Shown piece after piece: positions 1 to 37,063 of a stretch of 37,063 nucleotides of DNA. The notes beneath the pieces are model-generated. The model was not told the DNA's origin. It made no database searches and worked only from the letters and a program-made list of their open reading frames with translations. Where the stretch lies: the sequence record OL964749.1. One strand, written 5' to 3'. This DNA is from Escherichia phage T7. Position 1 is the stretch's first letter, and every line of letters starts with the position of its first letter. Made by a program: the position numbers and the translations under genes.

Positions 1-150
1 CTCACAGTGTACGGACCTAAAGTTCCCCCATAGGGGTACCTAAAGCCCAGCCAATCACCTAAAGTCAATGACCTTGAGGGTTCCCTAAGGGTTGGGGATG
101 ACCCTTGGGTTTGTCTTTGGGTGTTACCTTGAGTGTCTCTCTGTGTCCCT
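1..150. repeat. Left terminal direct repeat (TR) of a T7-type genome; identical copy at the right end
   Basis: Bases 1-150 recur exactly at 36914-37063; sequence matches the T7 terminal redundancy (CTCACAGTGTACGGACCTAAAG...). Confidence 0.95.
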
Positions 151-345
151 ACCTGTTACAGTCTCCTAAAGTATCCTCCTAAAGTATCCTCCTAAAGTCA
201 CCTCCTAACGTCCATCCTAAAGCCAACACCTAAAGACCCATCAAGTCAACGCCTATCTTAAAGTTTAAACATAAAGACCAGACCTAAAGACCAGACCTAA
301 AGACACTACATAAAGACCAGACCTAAAGACGCCTTGTTGTTAGCC
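151..345. repeat. Left-end array of short CCTAAAG-containing repeats (concatemer junction region)
   Basis: Repeated 12-13 bp units such as CCTAAAGTATCCT (165-177 and 178-190), CCTAAAGTCACCT, CCTAAAGACCAGA, as in the T7 left end. Confidence 0.8.
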
Positions 346-366
346 ATAAAGTGATAACCTTTAATC

Positions 367-431
367 ATTGTCTTTATTAATACAACTCATTGTCTTTATT
401 AATATAATCATTGTCTTTATTAATACAACTC
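367..431 (+). repeat. Tandem triplication of a 21-22 bp unit (ATTGTCTTTATTAATACAACTC) spanning the upstream half of promoter phiOL
   Basis: Copies at 367-388, 389-409 (variant AATATAATC) and 410-431; only the third is followed by CACTATAAGGAGAG. Confidence 0.85.
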
Positions 432-531: not shown

Positions 532-642
532 TCGAGAGGGACACGGCGAATAGCCATCCCAATCGACACCGGGGTCAACCGGGCGCACAGTGCCTTCTAG
601 GTGACTTAAGCGCACCACGGCACATAAGGTGAAACAAAACGG

Positions 643-853: not shown

Positions 854-1549
854 ATGGCTATGTCTAACATGACTTACAACAACGTTTTCGACCACGCTTA
901 CGAAATGCTGAAAGAAAACATCCGTTATGATGACATCCGTGACACTGATGACCTGCACGATGCTATTCACATGGCTGCCGATAATGCAGTTCCGCACTAC
1001 TACGCTGACATCTTTAGCGTAATGGCAAGTGAGGGCATTGACCTTGAGTTCGAAGACTCTGATCTGATGCCTGACACCAAGGACGTAATCCGCATCCTGC
1101 AAGCGCGTATCTATGAGCAATTAACGATTGACCTCTGGGAAGACGCAGAAGACTTGCTCAATGAATACTTGGAGGAAGTCGAGGAAGTCGCACGACAGAA
1201 AGAAATTGACCGCGCTAAGGCCCGTAAAGAACGTCACGAGGGGCGCTTAGAGGCACGCAGATTCAAACGTCGCAACCGCAAGGCACGTAAAGCACACAAA
1301 GCTAAGCGCGAAAGAATGCTTGCTGCGTGGCGATGGGCTGAACGTCAAGAACGGCGTAACCATGAGGTAGCTGTAGATGTACTAGGAAGAACCAATAACG
1401 CTATGCTCCGGGTCAACATGTCCTCTGGGGACTTTAAGGCGCTTGAGGAACGAATCGCGCTGCACTGGCGTAATGCTGACCGGATGGCTATCGCTAATGG
1501 TCTTACGCTCAACATTGATAAGCAACTTGACGCAATGTTAATGGGCTGA
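854..1549 (+). CDS. In-frame fusion: Ocr (gene 0.3 anti-restriction DNA mimic, residues 1 to about 111) joined to the C-terminal roughly 120 aa of gp0.7 (host transcription shut-off domain); kinase domain absent
   Basis: 231-aa ORF; N-terminus [19 protein letters not shown]...[10 protein letters not shown] equals T7 Ocr, then a basic Arg/Lys-rich tail ending 71 bp before gene 1, as gene 0.7 does in T7. Confidence 0.85.
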
Positions 1550-6053: not shown

Positions 6054-6076
6054 TTTTACGACTCACTAAAGGAGGT
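6054..6076 (+). promoter_or_regulatory. T7 promoter phi1.5 with non-consensus -16/-15 (TTTTACGACTCACTAAAGGAGGT)
   Basis: Matches the class II promoter from -14 to +6; positions -16 and -15 are TT instead of AA, consistent with a deletion junction at the promoter edge. Confidence 0.7.
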
Positions 6077-7350: not shown

Positions 7351-8049
7351 ATGGCTAAGAAGATTTTCACCTCTGCGCTGGGTACCGCTGAACCTTACGC
7401 TTACATCGCCAAGCCGGACTACGGCAACGAAGAGCGTGGCTTTGGGAACCCTCGTGGTGTCTATAAAGTTGACCTGACTATTCCCAACAAAGACCCGCGC
7501 TGCCAGCGTATGGTCGATGAAATCGTGAAGTGTCACGAAGAGGCTTATGCTGCTGCCGTTGAGGAATACGAAGCTAATCCACCTGCTGTAGCTCGTGGTA
7601 AGAAACCGCTGAAACCGTATGAGGGTGACATGCCGTTCTTCGATAACGGTGACGGTACGACTACCTTTAAGTTCAAATGCTACGCGTCTTTCCAAGACAA
7701 GAAGACCAAAGAGACCAAGCACATCAATCTTGTTGTGGTTGACTCAAAAGGTAAGAAGATGGAAGACGTTCCGATTATCGGTGGTGGCTCTAAGCTGAAA
7801 GTTAAATATTCTCTGGTTCCATACAAGTGGAACACTGCTGTAGGTGCGAGCGTTAAGCTGCAACTGGAATCCGTGATGCTGGTCGAACTGGCTACCTTTG
7901 GTGGCGGTGAAGACGATTGGGCTGACGAAGTTGAAGAGAACGGCTATGTTGCCTCTGGTTCTGCCAAAGCGAGCAAACCACGCGACGAAGAAAGCTGGGA
8001 CGAAGACGACGAAGAGTCCGAGGAAGCAGACGAAGACGGAGACTTCTAA
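7351..8049 (+). CDS. Single-stranded DNA-binding protein gp2.5
   Basis: 232-aa ORF MAKKIFTSALGTAEPYAYIAKPDYGNEERGFGNPRGVYKVDLTIPN... with acidic C-terminal tail ending ...EADEDGDF. Confidence 0.95.
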   Translation: MAKKIFTSALGTAEPYAYIAKPDYGNEERGFGNPRGVYKVDLTIPNKDPRCQRMVDEIVKCHEEAYAAAVEEYEANPPAVARGKKPLKPYEGDMPFFDNGDGTTTFKFKCYASFQDKKTKETKHINLVVVDSKGKKMEDVPIIGGGSKLKVKYSLVPYKWNTAVGASVKLQLESVMLVELATFGGGEDDWADEVEENGYVASGSAKASKPRDEESWDEDDEESEEADEDGDF

Positions 8050-8469
8050 GTGGAACTGCGGGAGAAAATCCTTGAGCGAATCAAGGTGACTTCCTCTGGG
8101 TGTTGGGAGTGGCAGGGCGCTACGAACAATAAAGGGTACGGGCAGGTGTGGTGCAGCAATACCGGAAAGGTTGTCTACTGTCATCGCGTAATGTCTAATG
8201 CTCCGAAAGGTTCTACCGTCCTGCACTCCTGTGATAATCCATTATGTTGTAACCCTGAACACCTATCCATAGGAACTCCAAAAGAGAACTCCACTGACAT
8301 GGTAAATAAGGGTCGCTCACACAAGGGGTATAAACTTTCAGACGAAGACGTAATGGCAATCATGGAGTCCAGCGAGTCCAATGTATCCTTAGCTCGCACC
8401 TATGGTGTCTCCCAACAGACTATTTGTGATATACGCAAATGGAGGCGACATGGCAGGTTACGGCGCTAA
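8050..8469 (+). CDS. Gene 2.8 protein (139 aa), HNH-type endonuclease-like
   Basis: ORF starting at GTG directly after the 2.5 stop; contains CHRVMSNAPKGSTVLHSCDNPLCCNPEHL, an HNH-like Cys/His motif. Confidence 0.7.
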   Translation: MELREKILERIKVTSSGCWEWQGATNNKGYGQVWCSNTGKVVYCHRVMSNAPKGSTVLHSCDNPLCCNPEHLSIGTPKENSTDMVNKGRSHKGYKLSDEDVMAIMESSESNVSLARTYGVSQQTICDIRKWRRHGRLRR

Positions 8470-9355: not shown

Positions 9356-9377
9356 TAATTGAACTCACTAAAGGGAG

Positions 9378-9378
<1 letters not shown>
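9356..9378 (+). promoter_or_regulatory. T7 promoter phi3.8
   Basis: TAATTGAACTCACTAAAGGGAGA; +1 near 9373. Confidence 0.85.
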
Positions 9379-11239
<1,861 letters not shown>

Positions 11240-11242
<3 letters not shown>

Positions 11243-11262
11243 TACGACTCACTAAAGGCCAC
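11240..11262 (+). promoter_or_regulatory. T7 promoter phi4.3 with altered initially transcribed sequence (GGCCAC instead of GGAGAC)
   Basis: TAATACGACTCACTAAAGG then CCACACAG; consensus through +2, consistent with a deletion junction at +3. Confidence 0.75.
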
Positions 11263-11380
11263 ACAGTCACGCGCTCTGGCGATTCGCTCCAACGAACTGG
11301 CTGACAGTGCATCCACTAAAGTTACCGAGGCTGCCCGTGTGGCAAACCAAGCTCAACAGCTTTCCAAATTCTTTGAGTAA
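11259..11380 (+). pseudogene. Remnant of gene 4.3 lacking RBS, start codon and about 30 N-terminal codons
   Basis: In-frame segment ATQSRALAIRSNELADSASTKVTEAARVANQAQQLSKFFE without an initiator; about 100 bp missing relative to reference. Confidence 0.65.
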
Positions 11381-11399
11381 TCAAACAGGAGAAACCATT

Positions 11400-11669
11400 A
11401 TGTCTAACGTAGCTGAAACTATCCGTCTATCCGATACAGCTGACCAGTGGAACCGTCGAGTCCACATCAACGTTCGCAACGGTAAGGCGACTATGGTTTA
11501 CCGCTGGAAGGACTCTAAGTCCTCTAAGAATCACACTCAGCGTATGACGTTGACAGATGAGCAAGCACTGCGTCTGGTCAATGCGCTTACCAAAGCTGCC
11601 GTGACAGCAATTCATGAAGCTGGTCGCGTCAATGAAGCTATGGCTATCCTCGACAAGATTGATAACTAA
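11400..11669 (+). CDS. Gene 4.5 protein (89 aa)
   Basis: ORF MSNVAETIRLSDTADQWNRRVHINVRNGKATMVYRWKDSK... preceded by CAGGAGAA; the track start at 11307 is an upstream extension. Confidence 0.85.
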   Translation: MSNVAETIRLSDTADQWNRRVHINVRNGKATMVYRWKDSKSSKNHTQRMTLTDEQALRLVNALTKAAVTAIHEAGRVNEAMAILDKIDN

Positions 11670-11679
11670 GAGTGGTATC

Positions 11680-11713
11680 CTCAAGGTCGCCAAAGTGGTG
11701 GCCTTCATGAATA
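11680..11713 (+). promoter_or_regulatory. RNase III site R4.7
   Basis: Hairpin CAAGGTCGCCAAAGTGGTGGCCTT just downstream of the 4.5 stop. Confidence 0.55.
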
Positions 11714-11736
11714 CTATTCGACTCACTATAGGAGAT
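11714..11736 (+). promoter_or_regulatory. T7 promoter phi4.7
   Basis: CTATTCGACTCACTATAGGAGAT; +1 near 11731, 12 nt before the gene 4.7 ATG. Confidence 0.7.
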
Positions 11737-11742
11737 ATTACC

Positions 11743-11994
11743 ATGCGTGACCCTAAAGTTATCCAAGCAGAAATCGCTAAACTGGAAGCTGAACTGGAGG
11801 ACGTTAAGTACCATGAAGCTAAGACTCGCTCCGCTGTTCACATCTTGAAGAACTTAGGCTGGACTTGGACAAGACAGACTGGCTGGAAGAAACCAGAAGT
11901 TACCAAGCTGAGTCATAAGGTGTTCGATAAGGACACTATGACCCACATCAAGGCTGGTGATTGGGTTAAGGTTGACATGGGAGTTGTAACATGA
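11743..11994 (+). CDS. Gene 4.7 protein, truncated: 83 aa against 135 aa in reference T7
   Basis: ORF MRDPKVIQAEIAKLEAELEDVKYHEAKTRS...VDMGVVT; about 100 bp missing near the 3' end, with the frame-shifted original stop about 55 nt downstream. Confidence 0.7.
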   Translation: MRDPKVIQAEIAKLEAELEDVKYHEAKTRSAVHILKNLGWTWTRQTGWKKPEVTKLSHKVFDKDTMTHIKAGDWVKVDMGVVT

Positions 11995-12068
11995 TTCACA
12001 CAGGTTTCTTGACAGTTGTTTCATATGAAGAGATTGTTAAGTCACGATAATCAATAGGAGAAATCAAT

Positions 12069-14183
12069 ATGATCGTTTCTGACATCGAAGCTAACGCCCT
12101 CTTAGAGAGCGTCACTAAGTTCCACTGCGGGGTTATCTACGACTACTCCACCGCTGAGTACGTAAGCTACCGTCCGAGTGACTTCGGTGCGTATCTGGAT
12201 GCGCTGGAAGCCGAGGTTGCACGAGGCGGTCTTATTGTGTTCCACAACGGTCACAAGTATGACGTTCCTGCATTGACCAAACTGGCAAAGTTGCAATTGA
12301 ACCGAGAGTTCCACCTTCCTCGTGAGAACTGTATTGACACCCTTGTGTTGTCACGTTTGATTCATTCCAACCTCAAGGACACCGATATGGGTCTTCTGCG
12401 TTCCGGCAAGTTGCCCGGAAAACGCTTTGGGTCTCACGCTTTGGAGGCGTGGGGTTATCGCTTAGGCGAGATGAAGGGTGAATACAAAGACGACTTTAAG
12501 CGTATGCTTGAAGAGCAGGGTGAAGAATACGTTGACGGAATGGAGTGGTGGAACTTCAACGAAGAGATGATGGACTATAACGTTCAGGACGTTGTGGTAA
12601 CTAAAGCTCTCCTTGAGAAGCTACTCTCTGACAAACATTACTTCCCTCCTGAGATTGACTTTACGGACGTAGGATACACTACGTTCTGGTCAGAATCCCT
12701 TGAGGCCGTTGACATTGAACATCGTGCTGCATGGCTGCTCGCTAAACAAGAGCGCAACGGGTTCCCGTTTGACACAAAAGCAATCGAAGAGTTGTACGTA
12801 GAGTTAGCTGCTCGCCGCTCTGAGTTGCTCCGTAAATTGACCGAAACGTTCGGCTCGTGGTATCAGCCTAAAGGTGGCACTGAGATGTTCTGCCATCCGC
12901 GAACAGGTAAGCCACTACCTAAATACCCTCGCATTAAGACACCTAAAGTTGGTGGTATCTTTAAGAAGCCTAAGAACAAGGCACAGCGAGAAGGCCGTGA
13001 GCCTTGCGAACTTGATACCCGCGAGTACGTTGCTGGTGCTCCTTACACCCCAGTTGAACATGTTGTGTTTAACCCTTCGTCTCGTGACCACATTCAGAAG
13101 AAACTCCAAGAGGCTGGGTGGGTCCCGACCAAGTACACCGATAAGGGTGCTCCTGTGGTGGACGATGAGGTACTCGAAGGAGTACGTGTAGATGACCCTG
13201 AGAAGCAAGCCGCTATCGACCTCATTAAAGAGTACTTGATGATTCAGAAGCGAATCGGACAGTCTGCTGAGGGAGACAAAGCATGGCTTCGTTATGTTGC
13301 TGAGGATGGTAAGATTCATGGTTCTGTTAACCCTAATGGAGCAGTTACGGGTCGTGCGACCCATGCGTTCCCAAACCTTGCGCAAATTCCGGGTGTACGT
13401 TCTCCTTATGGAGAGCAGTGTCGCGCTGCTTTTGGCGCTGAGCACCATTTGGATGGGATAACTGGTAAGCCTTGGGTTCAGGCTGGCATCGACGCATCCG
13501 GTCTTGAGCTACGCTGCTTGGCTCACTTCATGGCTCGCTTTGATAACGGCGAGTACGCTCACGAGATTCTTAACGGCGACATCCACACTAAGAACCAGAT
13601 AGCTGCTGAACTACCTACCCGAGATAACGCTAAGACGTTCATCTATGGGTTCCTCTATGGTGCTGGTGATGAGAAGATTGGACAGATTGTTGGTGCTGGT
13701 AAAGAGCGCGGTAAGGAACTCAAGAAGAAATTCCTTGAGAACACCCCCGCGATTGCAGCACTCCGCGAGTCTATCCAACAGACACTTGTCGAGTCCTCTC
13801 AATGGGTAGCTGGTGAGCAACAAGTCAAGTGGAAACGCCGCTGGATTAAAGGTCTGGATGGTCGTAAGGTACACGTTCGTAGTCCTCACGCTGCCTTGAA
13901 TACCCTACTGCAATCTGCTGGTGCTCTCATCTGCAAACTGTGGATTATCAAGACCGAAGAGATGCTCGTAGAGAAAGGCTTGAAGCATGGCTGGGATGGG
14001 GACTTTGCGTACATGGCATGGGTACATGATGAAATCCAAGTAGGCTGCCGTACCGAAGAGATTGCTCAGGTGGTCATTGAGACCGCACAAGAAGCGATGC
14101 GCTGGGTTGGAGACCACTGGAACTTCCGGTGTCTTCTGGATACCGAAGGTAAGATGGGTCCTAATTGGGCGATTTGCCACTGA
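12069..14183 (+). CDS. DNA polymerase gp5 (family A, thioredoxin-binding, with 3'-5' exonuclease)
   Basis: 704-aa [39 protein letters not shown]... with exonuclease and polymerase motifs; matches T7 gp5. Confidence 0.98.
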
Positions 14184-14198
14184 TACAGGAGGCTACTC

Positions 14199-14402
14199 AT
14201 GAACGAAAGACACTTAACAGGTGCTGCTTCTGAAATGCTAGTAGCCTACAAATTTACCAAAGCTGGGTACACTGTCTATTACCCTATGCTGACTCAGAGT
14301 AAAGAGGACTTGGTTGTATGTAAGGATGGTAAATTTAGTAAGGTTCAGGTTAAAACATTGTGGTTGACGAAGATGTGCTTATTTTCACATGGGACGAAGT
14401 AA
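14199..14402 (+). CDS. Gene 5.3 (HNH endonuclease-like), frameshift-truncated to 67 aa against 118 aa in reference
   Basis: N-terminus MNERHLTGAASEMLVAYKFTKAGYTVYYPMLTQSKEDLVVCKDGKFSKVQVKT matches gp5.3, then a short out-of-frame tail; about 100 bp missing. Confidence 0.7.
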   Translation: MNERHLTGAASEMLVAYKFTKAGYTVYYPMLTQSKEDLVVCKDGKFSKVQVKTLWLTKMCLFSHGTK

Positions 14403-16479: not shown

Positions 16480-16746
16480 ATGTGTTTCTCACCGAAAATT
16501 AAAACTCCGAAGATGGATACCAATCAGATTCGAGCCGTTGAGCCAGCGCCTCTGACCCAAGAAGTGTCAAGCGTGGAGTTCGGTGGGTCTTCTGATGAGA
16601 CGGATACCGAGGGCACCGAAGTGTCTGGACGCAAAGGCCTCAAGGTCGAACGTGATGATTCCGTAGCGAAGTCTAAAGCCAGCGGCAATGGCTCCGCTCG
16701 TATGAAATCTTCCATCCGTAAGTCCGCATTTGGAGGTAAGAAGTGA
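16480..16746 (+). CDS. Gene 6.7 protein (88 aa, virion protein)
   Basis: ORF MCFSPKIKTPKMDTNQIRAVEPAPLTQEVSSVEFGG...; the track start at 16459 is an upstream extension. Confidence 0.8.
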   Translation: MCFSPKIKTPKMDTNQIRAVEPAPLTQEVSSVEFGGSSDETDTEGTEVSGRKGLKVERDDSVAKSKASGNGSARMKSSIRKSAFGGKK

Positions 16747-19184: not shown

Positions 19185-20108
19185 ATGGCTGAATCTAATG
19201 CAGACGTATATGCATCTTTTGGCGTGAACTCCGCTGTGATGTCTGGTGGTTCCGTTGAGGAACATGAGCAGAACATGCTGGCTCTTGATGTTGCTGCCCG
19301 TGATGGCGATGATGCAATCGAGTTAGCGTCAGACGAAGTGGAAACAGAACGTGACCTGTATGACAACTCTGACCCGTTCGGTCAAGAGGATGACGAAGGC
19401 CGCATTCAGGTTCGTATCGGTGATGGCTCTGAGCCGACCGATGTGGACACTGGAGAAGAAGGCGTTGAGGGCACCGAAGGTTCCGAAGAGTTTACCCCAC
19501 TGGGCGAGACTCCAGAAGAACTGGTAGCTGCCTCTGAGCAACTTGGTGAGCACGAAGAGGGCTTCCAAGAGATGATTAACATTGCTGCTGAGCGTGGCAT
19601 GAGTGTCGAGACCATTGAGGCTATCCAGCGTGAGTACGAGGAGAACGAAGAGTTGTCCGCCGAGTCCTACGCTAAGCTGGCTGAAATTGGCTACACGAAG
19701 GCTTTCATTGACTCGTATATCCGTGGTCAAGAAGCTCTGGTGGAGCAGTACGTAAACAGTGTCATTGAGTACGCTGGTGGTCGTGAACGTTTTGATGCAC
19801 TGTATAACCACCTTGAGACGCACAACCCTGAGGCTGCACAGTCGCTGGATAATGCGTTGACCAATCGTGACTTAGCGACCGTTAAGGCTATCATCAACTT
19901 GGCTGGTGAGTCTCGCGCTAAGGCGTTCGGTCGTAAGCCAACTCGTAGTGTGACTAATCGTGCTATTCCGGCTAAACCTCAGGCTACCAAGCGTGAAGGC
20001 TTTGCGGACCGTAGCGAGATGATTAAAGCTATGAGTGACCCTCGGTATCGCACAGATGCCAACTATCGTCGTCAAGTCGAACAGAAAGTAATCGATTCGA
20101 ACTTCTGA
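19185..20108 (+). CDS. Capsid assembly (scaffolding) protein gp9
   Basis: 307-aa acidic ORF MAESNADVYASFGVNSAVMSGGSVEEHEQNMLALD...; matches T7 gp9. Confidence 0.95.
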   Translation: MAESNADVYASFGVNSAVMSGGSVEEHEQNMLALDVAARDGDDAIELASDEVETERDLYDNSDPFGQEDDEGRIQVRIGDGSEPTDVDTGEEGVEGTEGSEEFTPLGETPEELVAASEQLGEHEEGFQEMINIAAERGMSVETIEAIQREYEENEELSAESYAKLAEIGYTKAFIDSYIRGQEALVEQYVNSVIEYAGGRERFDALYNHLETHNPEAAQSLDNALTNRDLATVKAIINLAGESRAKAFGRKPTRSVTNRAIPAKPQATKREGFADRSEMIKAMSDPRYRTDANYRRQVEQKVIDSNF

Positions 20109-20121
20109 TAGACTTCGAAAT

Positions 20122-20144
20122 TAATACGACTCACTATAGTGAGA
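20122..20144 (+). promoter_or_regulatory. T7 class III promoter phi10 carrying a G-to-T change at +2 (TATAGTGAGA instead of TATAGGGAGA)
   Basis: TAATACGACTCACTATAGTGAGACCACAACGGTTTCCCTCTAGAAATAATTTTGTTTAACTTTAAGAAGGAGATATACATATG; otherwise identical to the phi10 promoter and leader used in pET vectors. Confidence 0.9.
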
Positions 20145-20201
20145 CCACAACGGTTTCCCTCTAGAAATAATTTTGTTTAACTTTAAGAAGGAGATATACA
20201 T

Positions 20202-21239
20202 ATGGCTAGCATGACTGGTGGACAGCAAATGGGTACTAACCAAGGTAAAGGTGTAGTTGCTGCTGGAGATAAACTGGCGTTGTTCTTGAAGGTATTTGGC
20301 GGTGAAGTCCTGACTGCGTTCGCTCGTACCTCCGTGACCACTTCTCGCCACATGGTACGTTCCATCTCCAGCGGTAAATCCGCTCAGTTCCCTGTTCTGG
20401 GTCGCACTCAGGCAGCGTATCTGGCTCCGGGCGAGAACCTCGACGATAAACGTAAGGACATCAAACACACCGAGAAGGTAATCACCATTGACGGTCTCCT
20501 GACGGCTGACGTTCTGATTTATGATATTGAGGACGCGATGAACCACTACGACGTTCGCTCTGAGTATACCTCTCAGTTGGGTGAATCTCTGGCGATGGCT
20601 GCGGATGGTGCGGTTCTGGCTGAGATTGCCGGTCTGTGTAACGTGGAAAGCAAATATAATGAGAACATCGAGGGCTTAGGTACTGCTACCGTAATTGAGA
20701 CCACTCAGAACAAGGCCGCACTTACCGACCAAGTTGCGCTGGGTAAGGAGATTATTGCGGCTCTGACTAAGGCTCGTGCGGCTCTGACCAAGAACTATGT
20801 TCCGGCTGCTGACCGTGTGTTCTACTGTGACCCAGATAGCTACTCTGCGATTCTGGCAGCACTGATGCCGAACGCAGCAAACTACGCTGCTCTGATTGAC
20901 CCTGAGAAGGGTTCTATCCGCAACGTTATGGGCTTTGAGGTTGTAGAAGTTCCGCACCTCACCGCTGGTGGTGCTGGTACCGCTCGTGAGGGCACTACTG
21001 GTCAGAAGCACGTCTTCCCTGCCAATAAAGGTGAGGGTAATGTCAAGGTTGCTAAGGACAACGTTATCGGCCTGTTCATGCACCGCTCTGCGGTAGGTAC
21101 TGTTAAGCTGCGTGACTTGGCTCTGGAGCGCGCTCGCCGTGCTAACTTCCAAGCGGACCAGATTATCGCTAAGTACGCAATGGGCCACGGTGGTCTTCGC
21201 CCAGAAGCTGCTGGTGCAGTGGTTTTCAAAGTGGAGTAA
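20202..21239 (+). CDS. Major capsid protein gp10A
   Basis: 345-aa ORF MASMTGGQQMGTNQGKGVVAAGDKLALFLKVFGGEVLTAFARTSV...; identical to T7 gp10A including the T7-tag N-terminus. Confidence 0.98.
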   Translation: MASMTGGQQMGTNQGKGVVAAGDKLALFLKVFGGEVLTAFARTSVTTSRHMVRSISSGKSAQFPVLGRTQAAYLAPGENLDDKRKDIKHTEKVITIDGLLTADVLIYDIEDAMNHYDVRSEYTSQLGESLAMAADGAVLAEIAGLCNVESKYNENIEGLGTATVIETTQNKAALTDQVALGKEIIAALTKARAALTKNYVPAADRVFYCDPDSYSAILAALMPNAANYAALIDPEKGSIRNVMGFEVVEVPHLTAGGAGTAREGTTGQKHVFPANKGEGNVKVAKDNVIGLFMHRSAVGTVKLRDLALERARRANFQADQIIAKYAMGHGGLRPEAAGAVVFKVE

Positions 21240-24491: not shown

Positions 24492-24514
24492 TAATACGAC
24501 TCACTATAGGGAGC
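24492..24514 (+). promoter_or_regulatory. T7 class III promoter phi13
   Basis: TAATACGACTCACTATAGGGAGC; +1 near 24509 (C at +6 where I recall A in reference). Confidence 0.9.
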
Positions 24515-24541
24515 ACAATACGACTACGGGAGGGTTTTCTT

Positions 24542-36912: not shown

Positions 36913-37063
36913 TCTCACAGTGTACGGACCTAAAGTTCCCCCATAGGGGTACCTAAAGCCCAGCCAATCACCTAAAGTCAATGACCTTGAGGGTTCCCTA
37001 AGGGTTGGGGATGACCCTTGGGTTTGTCTTTGGGTGTTACCTTGAGTGTCTCTCTGTGTCCCT
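36913..37063. repeat. Right terminal direct repeat (TR)
   Basis: 36914-37063 is identical to 1-150; the preceding T at 36913 corresponds to the first TR base missing from the window start. Confidence 0.95.

Follow-up and report, generated by a model that had tools for sequence, protein, structure and literature searches.

The T7 genome analysed here (record OL964749.1; the whole stretch of 37,063 nucleotides is called the window) lacks the start of gene 4.3, and this lesion is very probably a designed CRISPR/Cas9 100-bp knockout scar rather than a natural feature. It is already explained by, and in that sense already known from, a published family of genome-reduced T7 mutants.

Exactly 100 bp are lost at the start of gene 4.3

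By pairwise alignment of window 11150-12080 with positions 13234-14364 of the T7 reference (ref; V01146 / NC_001604, 39,937-bp), by a four-way alignment and by exact junction mapping, exactly 100 bp are missing at gene 4.3, a shortfall that the original prediction had put at about 100 bp. The lost interval extends from ref 13340-13439 in its leftmost placement to ref 13343-13442 in its rightmost, since a 3-nt AGG microhomology at the junction (window 11256..11258) is common to both flanks and permits four equivalent placements, from between window 11255 and 11256 to between 11258 and 11259. Window 11240-11258 reads TAATACGACTCACTAAAGG and continues as CCACACAGTCACGC, whereas the reference at the phi4.3 site reads TAATACGACTCACTAAAGGAGACACACCATG (in a shorter excerpt, ...CACTAAAGGAGACACACCATG); as had been claimed, the sequence thus follows the promoter consensus through +2 and then passes into internal 4.3 coding sequence.

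In the reference, gene 4.3 spans 13352 to 13564 and the +1 of phi4.3 lies at 13341, so placed that the GGAG Shine-Dalgarno of the gene overlaps +1..+4 of the promoter. The deleted segment took with it this Shine-Dalgarno and the ATG at ref 13352, as well as codons 1-30 and a further base of the gene. Translations of the window and the reference, together with their alignment, show that codons 31-70 and the stop remain on the plus strand at window 11258..11380 (ATQSRALAIRSNELADSASTKVTEAARVANQAQQLSKFFE, then stop), the residues running ATQSRAL...KFFE. This remnant follows directly behind the TAA stop of gene 4.2 in the same frame, and alignments, junction mapping and translations uphold the claim that it has neither RBS nor start at its 5′ end (window 11258-11380). 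In a search of the remnant for a replacement start, the first ATG, GTG or TTG encountered was an internal GTG, 13 codons short of the end; this GTG was rejected as a start, as it would yield a peptide of 13 aa only and the frame upstream is closed by the 4.2 TAA. The list of open reading frames on both strands likewise held no notable new frame across the junction. Because RBS, ATG and codons 1-30 are lost, the genome is a predicted null in which, as read from its sequence, gp4.3 cannot be made. Gene 4.3 is annotated as non-essential in the reference, and it is already known to be dispensable in T7.

The window keeps the neighbouring genes 4.2 and 4.5 whole, together with their signals. The 112-aa gene 4.2 frame (window 10904..11242, plus strand; annotated at ref 12988-13326), identified from the frame list, the reference annotation and its translation, carries one substitution, I95T, at window 11187, and its TAA (11240-11242) forms the first three bases of phi4.3. 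Gene 4.5 (window 11387..11669, plus strand) is identical to the reference and has its own Shine-Dalgarno, AGGAG at 11387-11391, and an ATG at 11400. Further downstream, gene 4.7 bears a designed 100-bp deletion of its own at window 11987..11988 (ref 14172-14271, zero microhomology), which shifts the frame and cuts gp4.7 to 83 aa (CDS 11743-11994).

Promoter phi4.3 keeps its recognition sequence with an altered transcribed start

The class II promoter phi4.3 occupies window 11240..11258 on the plus strand from -17 to +2, reading TAATACGACTCACTAAA and then GG, with +1 at 11257. Positions -17..-1 (TAATACGACTCACTAAA, window 11240-11256) are identical to the reference, G is present at both +1 and +2 (window 11257-11258), and the site matches TAATACGACTCACTANAG with zero mismatches. 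Since -17..-1 is unchanged and GG stands at +1/+2, the promoter should still be recognised and is probably still active in the mutant. Its transcribed start changes from GGAGACACAC in the reference to GGCCACACAG in the window, as expected from the claimed change of the initially transcribed sequence from GGAGAC to GGCCAC, which a comparison of window and reference bears out. Among the first ten transcribed bases, differences fall at +3, +4 and +10 only (window 11259..11266, plus strand; CC versus AG at +3/+4 and G versus C at +10), while +5 to +9 (ACACA) are, by coincidence, the same as in the reference.

In T7 RNA polymerase promoters, sequence from +3 onward mainly affects abortive cycling and yield and not recognition (review PMC11617373); a modest change in phi4.3 output is therefore possible. 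The suggestion that GGCCAC alters promoter clearance is, from this general knowledge of T7 RNA polymerase (PMC11617373), plausible, and any change in strength or abortive cycling would be expected to be modest. The mutant 5′ end contains GCCACAC, which is able to pair with a GUGUGGC lying about 80 nt further on. Read from phi4.3, gene 4.5 now stands behind a 143-nt untranslated leader; the predicted fold of this leader with the start of 4.5 was not more stable than shuffled sequences (z = 0.33), and the gene 4.5 RBS lay outside any strong helix in it. The fold therefore offers no structural argument for an effect on 4.5.

Five 100-bp deletions are each centred on a Cas9 target

Over its full 37,063 bp the window can be aligned with T7 from one end to the other at ~99.8% identity, broken by deletions that leave it 7.2% shorter than the reference. 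Five of these are of exactly 100 bp and lie in genes 1.7, 4.3, 4.7 and 5.3 and downstream of 19.5. Those in gene 1.7 (ref 8163-8262), in gene 5.3 (ref 16642-16741) and downstream of 19.5 (ref 39565-39664; between window 36799 and 36800) have zero microhomology, as does the one in 4.7. The last of them falls in sequence without an annotated gene, gene 19.5 being annotated at ref 39389-39538; the designers' gene prediction there may have differed from the reference annotation.

Deletions of such uniform length recall CiPGr (Yuan, Shi, Jiang, Ma 2022, Nucleic Acids Res 50:13183; PMC9825161), in which a 200-bp cassette combines a 20-bp SpCas9 spacer with a 2x50-bp homologous-recombination template, and T7 is serially passaged on library cells so that deletions accumulate iteratively. 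The method was applied to T7 non-essential genes, with the disruptions of gp4.7 and gp5.3, both checked by PCR, named as examples, and its isolates were called T7_100_t1 to t3, a genome reduction of 7.1% being given for T7_100_t2 (PMC9825161). If deletions were built around the spacer in this way, every deleted segment should hold a Cas9 target at one and the same position. This is what was found: each of the five 100-bp segments has, beginning at offset 40, a 20-nt SpCas9 target with an NGG PAM, giving a layout of 40+20+40. Among random sets of five T7 segments (200,000 sets drawn), offset 40 was common to all five at a frequency of 6e-5 (6 of 100,000), and any common offset occurred in 0.3%.

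The centred target in gene 4.3 lies at ref 13381-13400 on the minus strand, with its PAM as CCA at 13378-13380 (TGG on the minus strand), which argues strongly for 5′-TGTACATACGAACCAGCAGT-3′ as the spacer used. Given this centred target, the designed deletion was probably ref 13341-13440, beginning at +1, and we infer from the protospacer that the designed junction falls between window 11256 and 11257 (between ref 13340 and 13441). The earlier statement that the deletion begins at +3 stands as one of the four equivalent placements, and differs from this design, which would start at +1. If the deletion did run from ref 13341 to 13440, the GG at +1/+2 is most likely the right homology arm and not kept promoter sequence: the first bases of the right flank are the GG supplied by codons 30/31 of gene 4.3 (GAG GCC). 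The promoter's GG start would then have been regenerated by chance after a design that removed +1 and +2.

The sequence of events would be as follows. E. coli carrying SpCas9 and a 'cassette-100' plasmid would have been infected, and Cas9 would have cut T7 DNA inside gene 4.3; recombination with the plasmid's two 50-bp homology arms would have mended the break, scarlessly removing 40 bp, the 20-bp target and a further 40 bp (ref 13341-13440). The deleted phage, without the target, would be immune to the guide, escape further cutting and become enriched.

Two further deletions, likewise free of microhomology, have their left ends precisely at the start of a gene. One removes the whole of gene 1.4 (ref 7608-7763; between window 6056 and 6057) and clips the first three bases of promoter phi1.5 (window 6054-6071), which reads TTTTACGACTCACTAAAG versus TAATACGAC..., making phi1.5 the second T7 promoter here altered by an engineered deletion. 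The other removes gene 7.7 (ref 19848-20216; between window 17451 and 17452) but spares its last 24 bp, which carry the gene 8 RBS. Both resemble 'cassette-gene' designs, whereas the sibling name T7_1t apparently denotes the cassette-100 library, which suggests mixed libraries or mixed populations behind the 1.4 and 7.7 deletions.

Origin of the gene 4.3 deletion

Among 50,697 phage records, the 4.3 junction was matched in one piece by only two, OL964748 and OL964750, both of which also match across the 4.7 junction in one piece. Their titles are 'Mutant Escherichia phage T7 clone T7_1t1' (OL964748) and 'T7_1t3' (OL964750), names that parallel the T7_100_t1 to t3 of PMC9825161; that the OL9647xx records come from the study of Yuan et al. 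2022 is a strong inference. T7_1t1 is 7.1% shorter than the reference, and the reduction given for T7_100_t2 thus does not tell it apart from the window. The siblings have most deletions and most SNPs in common with the window, yet are not identical to it, with lengths of 37,088 and 37,455 compared with 37,063 bp. In these independent records, where the appearance of an upstream ATG and RBS would have spoken against the original prediction, the junction is identical and there is no 4.3 start.

Classical Studier-type T7 deletion mutants arose by spontaneous direct-repeat deletion and lost non-essential class I/II genes, and the 4.3 lesion could have formed likewise, by slipped mispairing or recombination between short direct repeats that happened to span 100 bp. 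Its junction has the AGG microhomology that the other four 100-bp deletions lack, its flanks are imperfectly similar (CTAAAGGAGACACA versus GTAAAGAGGCCACACA; TAAAG..ACACA), and repeat-mediated deletions did occur in this genome: one of 104 bp across the 9-nt direct repeat GTCAACCGG (ref 541-653; window 574-582), which removes the E. coli A2 promoter region, one of 1480 bp that starts at the end of gene 0.3 and reaches into 0.7, across the 13-nt direct repeat AGGAAGTCGAGGA (window 1173-1185), and one of 277 bp within gene 3.8, flanked by 9-nt copies of the direct repeat AAAGGGAGA (window 9370-9378). Seen alone, the 4.3 deletion could pass for such an event. However, the clearly spontaneous deletions here use repeats of 9-13 nt and only 3 nt are shared at 4.3, fewer than the at least 5 bases typical of direct repeats at deletion endpoints; the best local repeat (TAAAG) would have yielded CACTAAAGAGGCC, which is not observed; and the exact length and dead-centre Cas9 target are those of four other deletions without microhomology. 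The junction also had no exact match in the viral, genome and metagenome contig collections searched. A spontaneous origin is thus very improbable. As separate observations on the repeat-mediated deletions, the 1480-bp one leaves a fragment of the 0.7 kinase that the sibling records annotate as 'protein kinase', and that in gene 3.8, which looks spontaneous rather than designed, has as its left AAAGGGAGA copy positions -4..+5 of promoter phi3.8.

Still less probable is natural strain variation, that is, a T7-like lineage without the 5′ part of gene 4.3. The gene is non-essential and T7 relatives do differ in small class II genes, but the near-identity of the window to T7 elsewhere (~99.8%), the zero exact matches in the same viral, genome and metagenome contigs, and the full 4.3 region, matching in separate pieces, of the other T7 records among the matches listed all speak against it, and the sole carriers are titled as mutant clones. 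A sequencing or assembly artefact, in which a read pile-up collapsed at an imperfect repeat, is equally remote: all three genomes were produced in a single laboratory, presumably with a single pipeline, and there are odd small rearrangements at the genome left end, but the junction recurs unchanged in three clones that were isolated and assembled separately and have differences elsewhere, assemblers do not produce gaps of exactly 100 bp with a Cas9 target at their centre, and the analogous 4.7 and 5.3 disruptions were PCR-verified (PMC9825161).

Expected consequences

With the designed knockout as the preferred reading, phi4.3 would still fire and give an mRNA in which the 143-nt leader precedes gene 4.5. 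Upstream class II promoters and phi4.7 also drive T7 genes 4.5 to 5; little effect on the phage is therefore expected, and the effect of the 4.3 lesion should be small. It is unlikely that the GGCC variant of phi4.3, with its pairing 5′ end, measurably changes transcription of 4.5 and the DNA polymerase gene or the stability of their mRNA, or else that loss of gp4.3 is mildly advantageous on defence-poor laboratory E. coli; if true, such a promoter effect or advantage would help to explain the presence of the lesion in all three fast-killing isolates.

With the dispensability of 4.3 known and the mutant family published, T7 biology itself gains little. A small point is that a deletion specified from +1 would by chance have regenerated a usable GG, leaving a +3/+4 promoter variant in a viable phage. 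More practically, scans of deposited phage genomes will include engineered ones, and deletions of round-number length, scarless and with a Cas9 target at their centre, are a signature by which to know them. Moreover, a recent preprint (PMC11482910) has put gp4.3 forward as counteracting a RADAR defence system, and the gp4.3-null mutant would be a ready-made tool for testing that proposal.

Further differences from the T7 reference

Two other promoters carry substitutions private to this clone. That of the major capsid gene, phi10 (window 20122-20145, ref 22905), reads TAATACGACTCACTATAG followed by TGAGA, a G>T change at +2 that is absent from OL964748 and OL964750; +2 is normally important for initiation by T7 RNA polymerase. 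In phi13 (window 24492-24515, ref 27279), A>C at +6 gives GGGAGC versus GGGAGA. Gene 1, encoding T7 RNA polymerase, has four substitutions (window 1918, 2170, 2689 and 3050): P100Q and Q184R are common to the siblings, R357H and E477D private to the window clone. The spectrum of substitutions against the reference is unusual: of 37, 14 are G>T and 4 are C>A, together 18, an excess for which oxidative damage, a mutator condition or sequencing error could be responsible.

Gene 7.3 (ref 19535-19834) has a 12-bp in-frame deletion at window ~17400 that is found in both siblings too (CDS of 288 versus 300 nt). At the left end (window 1-404) the sequence around the phiOL promoter is partly duplicated over 43 bp (about 362-404) and the copy pattern of the CCTAAAGT repeat array is changed, and compared with the reference the terminal repeat (window 36913-37063) is short of 8 bp (CCTTCGGT) and a single G; these changes, too, are present in the siblings.

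Comparison with known systems

The closest relatives of the window are its two sibling clones, from which it differs in having both the 5.3 and the 7.7 deletions, in lacking the phi1.1A/1.1B deletion of T7_1t1 and in its private SNPs. As a third clone beside them it is probably T7_1t2 / T7_100_t2. The 4.3 deletion has the features of the CiPGr cassette-100 design, in that it is exactly 100 bp long, scarless, centred on an SpCas9 target, placed in a non-essential gene and accompanied by further 100-bp deletions in non-essential T7 genes; a pure cassette-100 origin of the genome accounts less well for the whole-gene-style 1.4 and 7.7 deletions, which are a better fit to the 'cassette-gene' library.

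Larger losses from the same cluster have been described, as a 1.02-kb engineered deletion of T7 gp4.3-4.7 (PMC12664982) and as a large gp4.3-4.7 fragment deletion seen in CiPGr populations (PMC9825161). These complete deletions hit the same dispensable cluster, whose loss the phage is thus seen to tolerate, whereas the window has separate 100-bp deletions in 4.3 and 4.7 and keeps 4.5, phi4.3 and phi4.7. With Studier-type deletions the window shares the loss of non-essential class I/II genes, and three of its deletions are events of that kind; the 4.3 deletion, in contrast, combines a 3-nt overlap with a round-number length and a centred Cas9 target. Finally, the mutant phi4.3, as a +3/+4 double substitution (AG to CC) with the GG at +1/+2 kept, resembles the promoter variants of the initially transcribed region of Imburgio et al. 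2000 and Conrad et al. 2020 (as summarised in review PMC11617373), but differs from them in being a by-product of a gene knockout rather than a purpose-made promoter variant.
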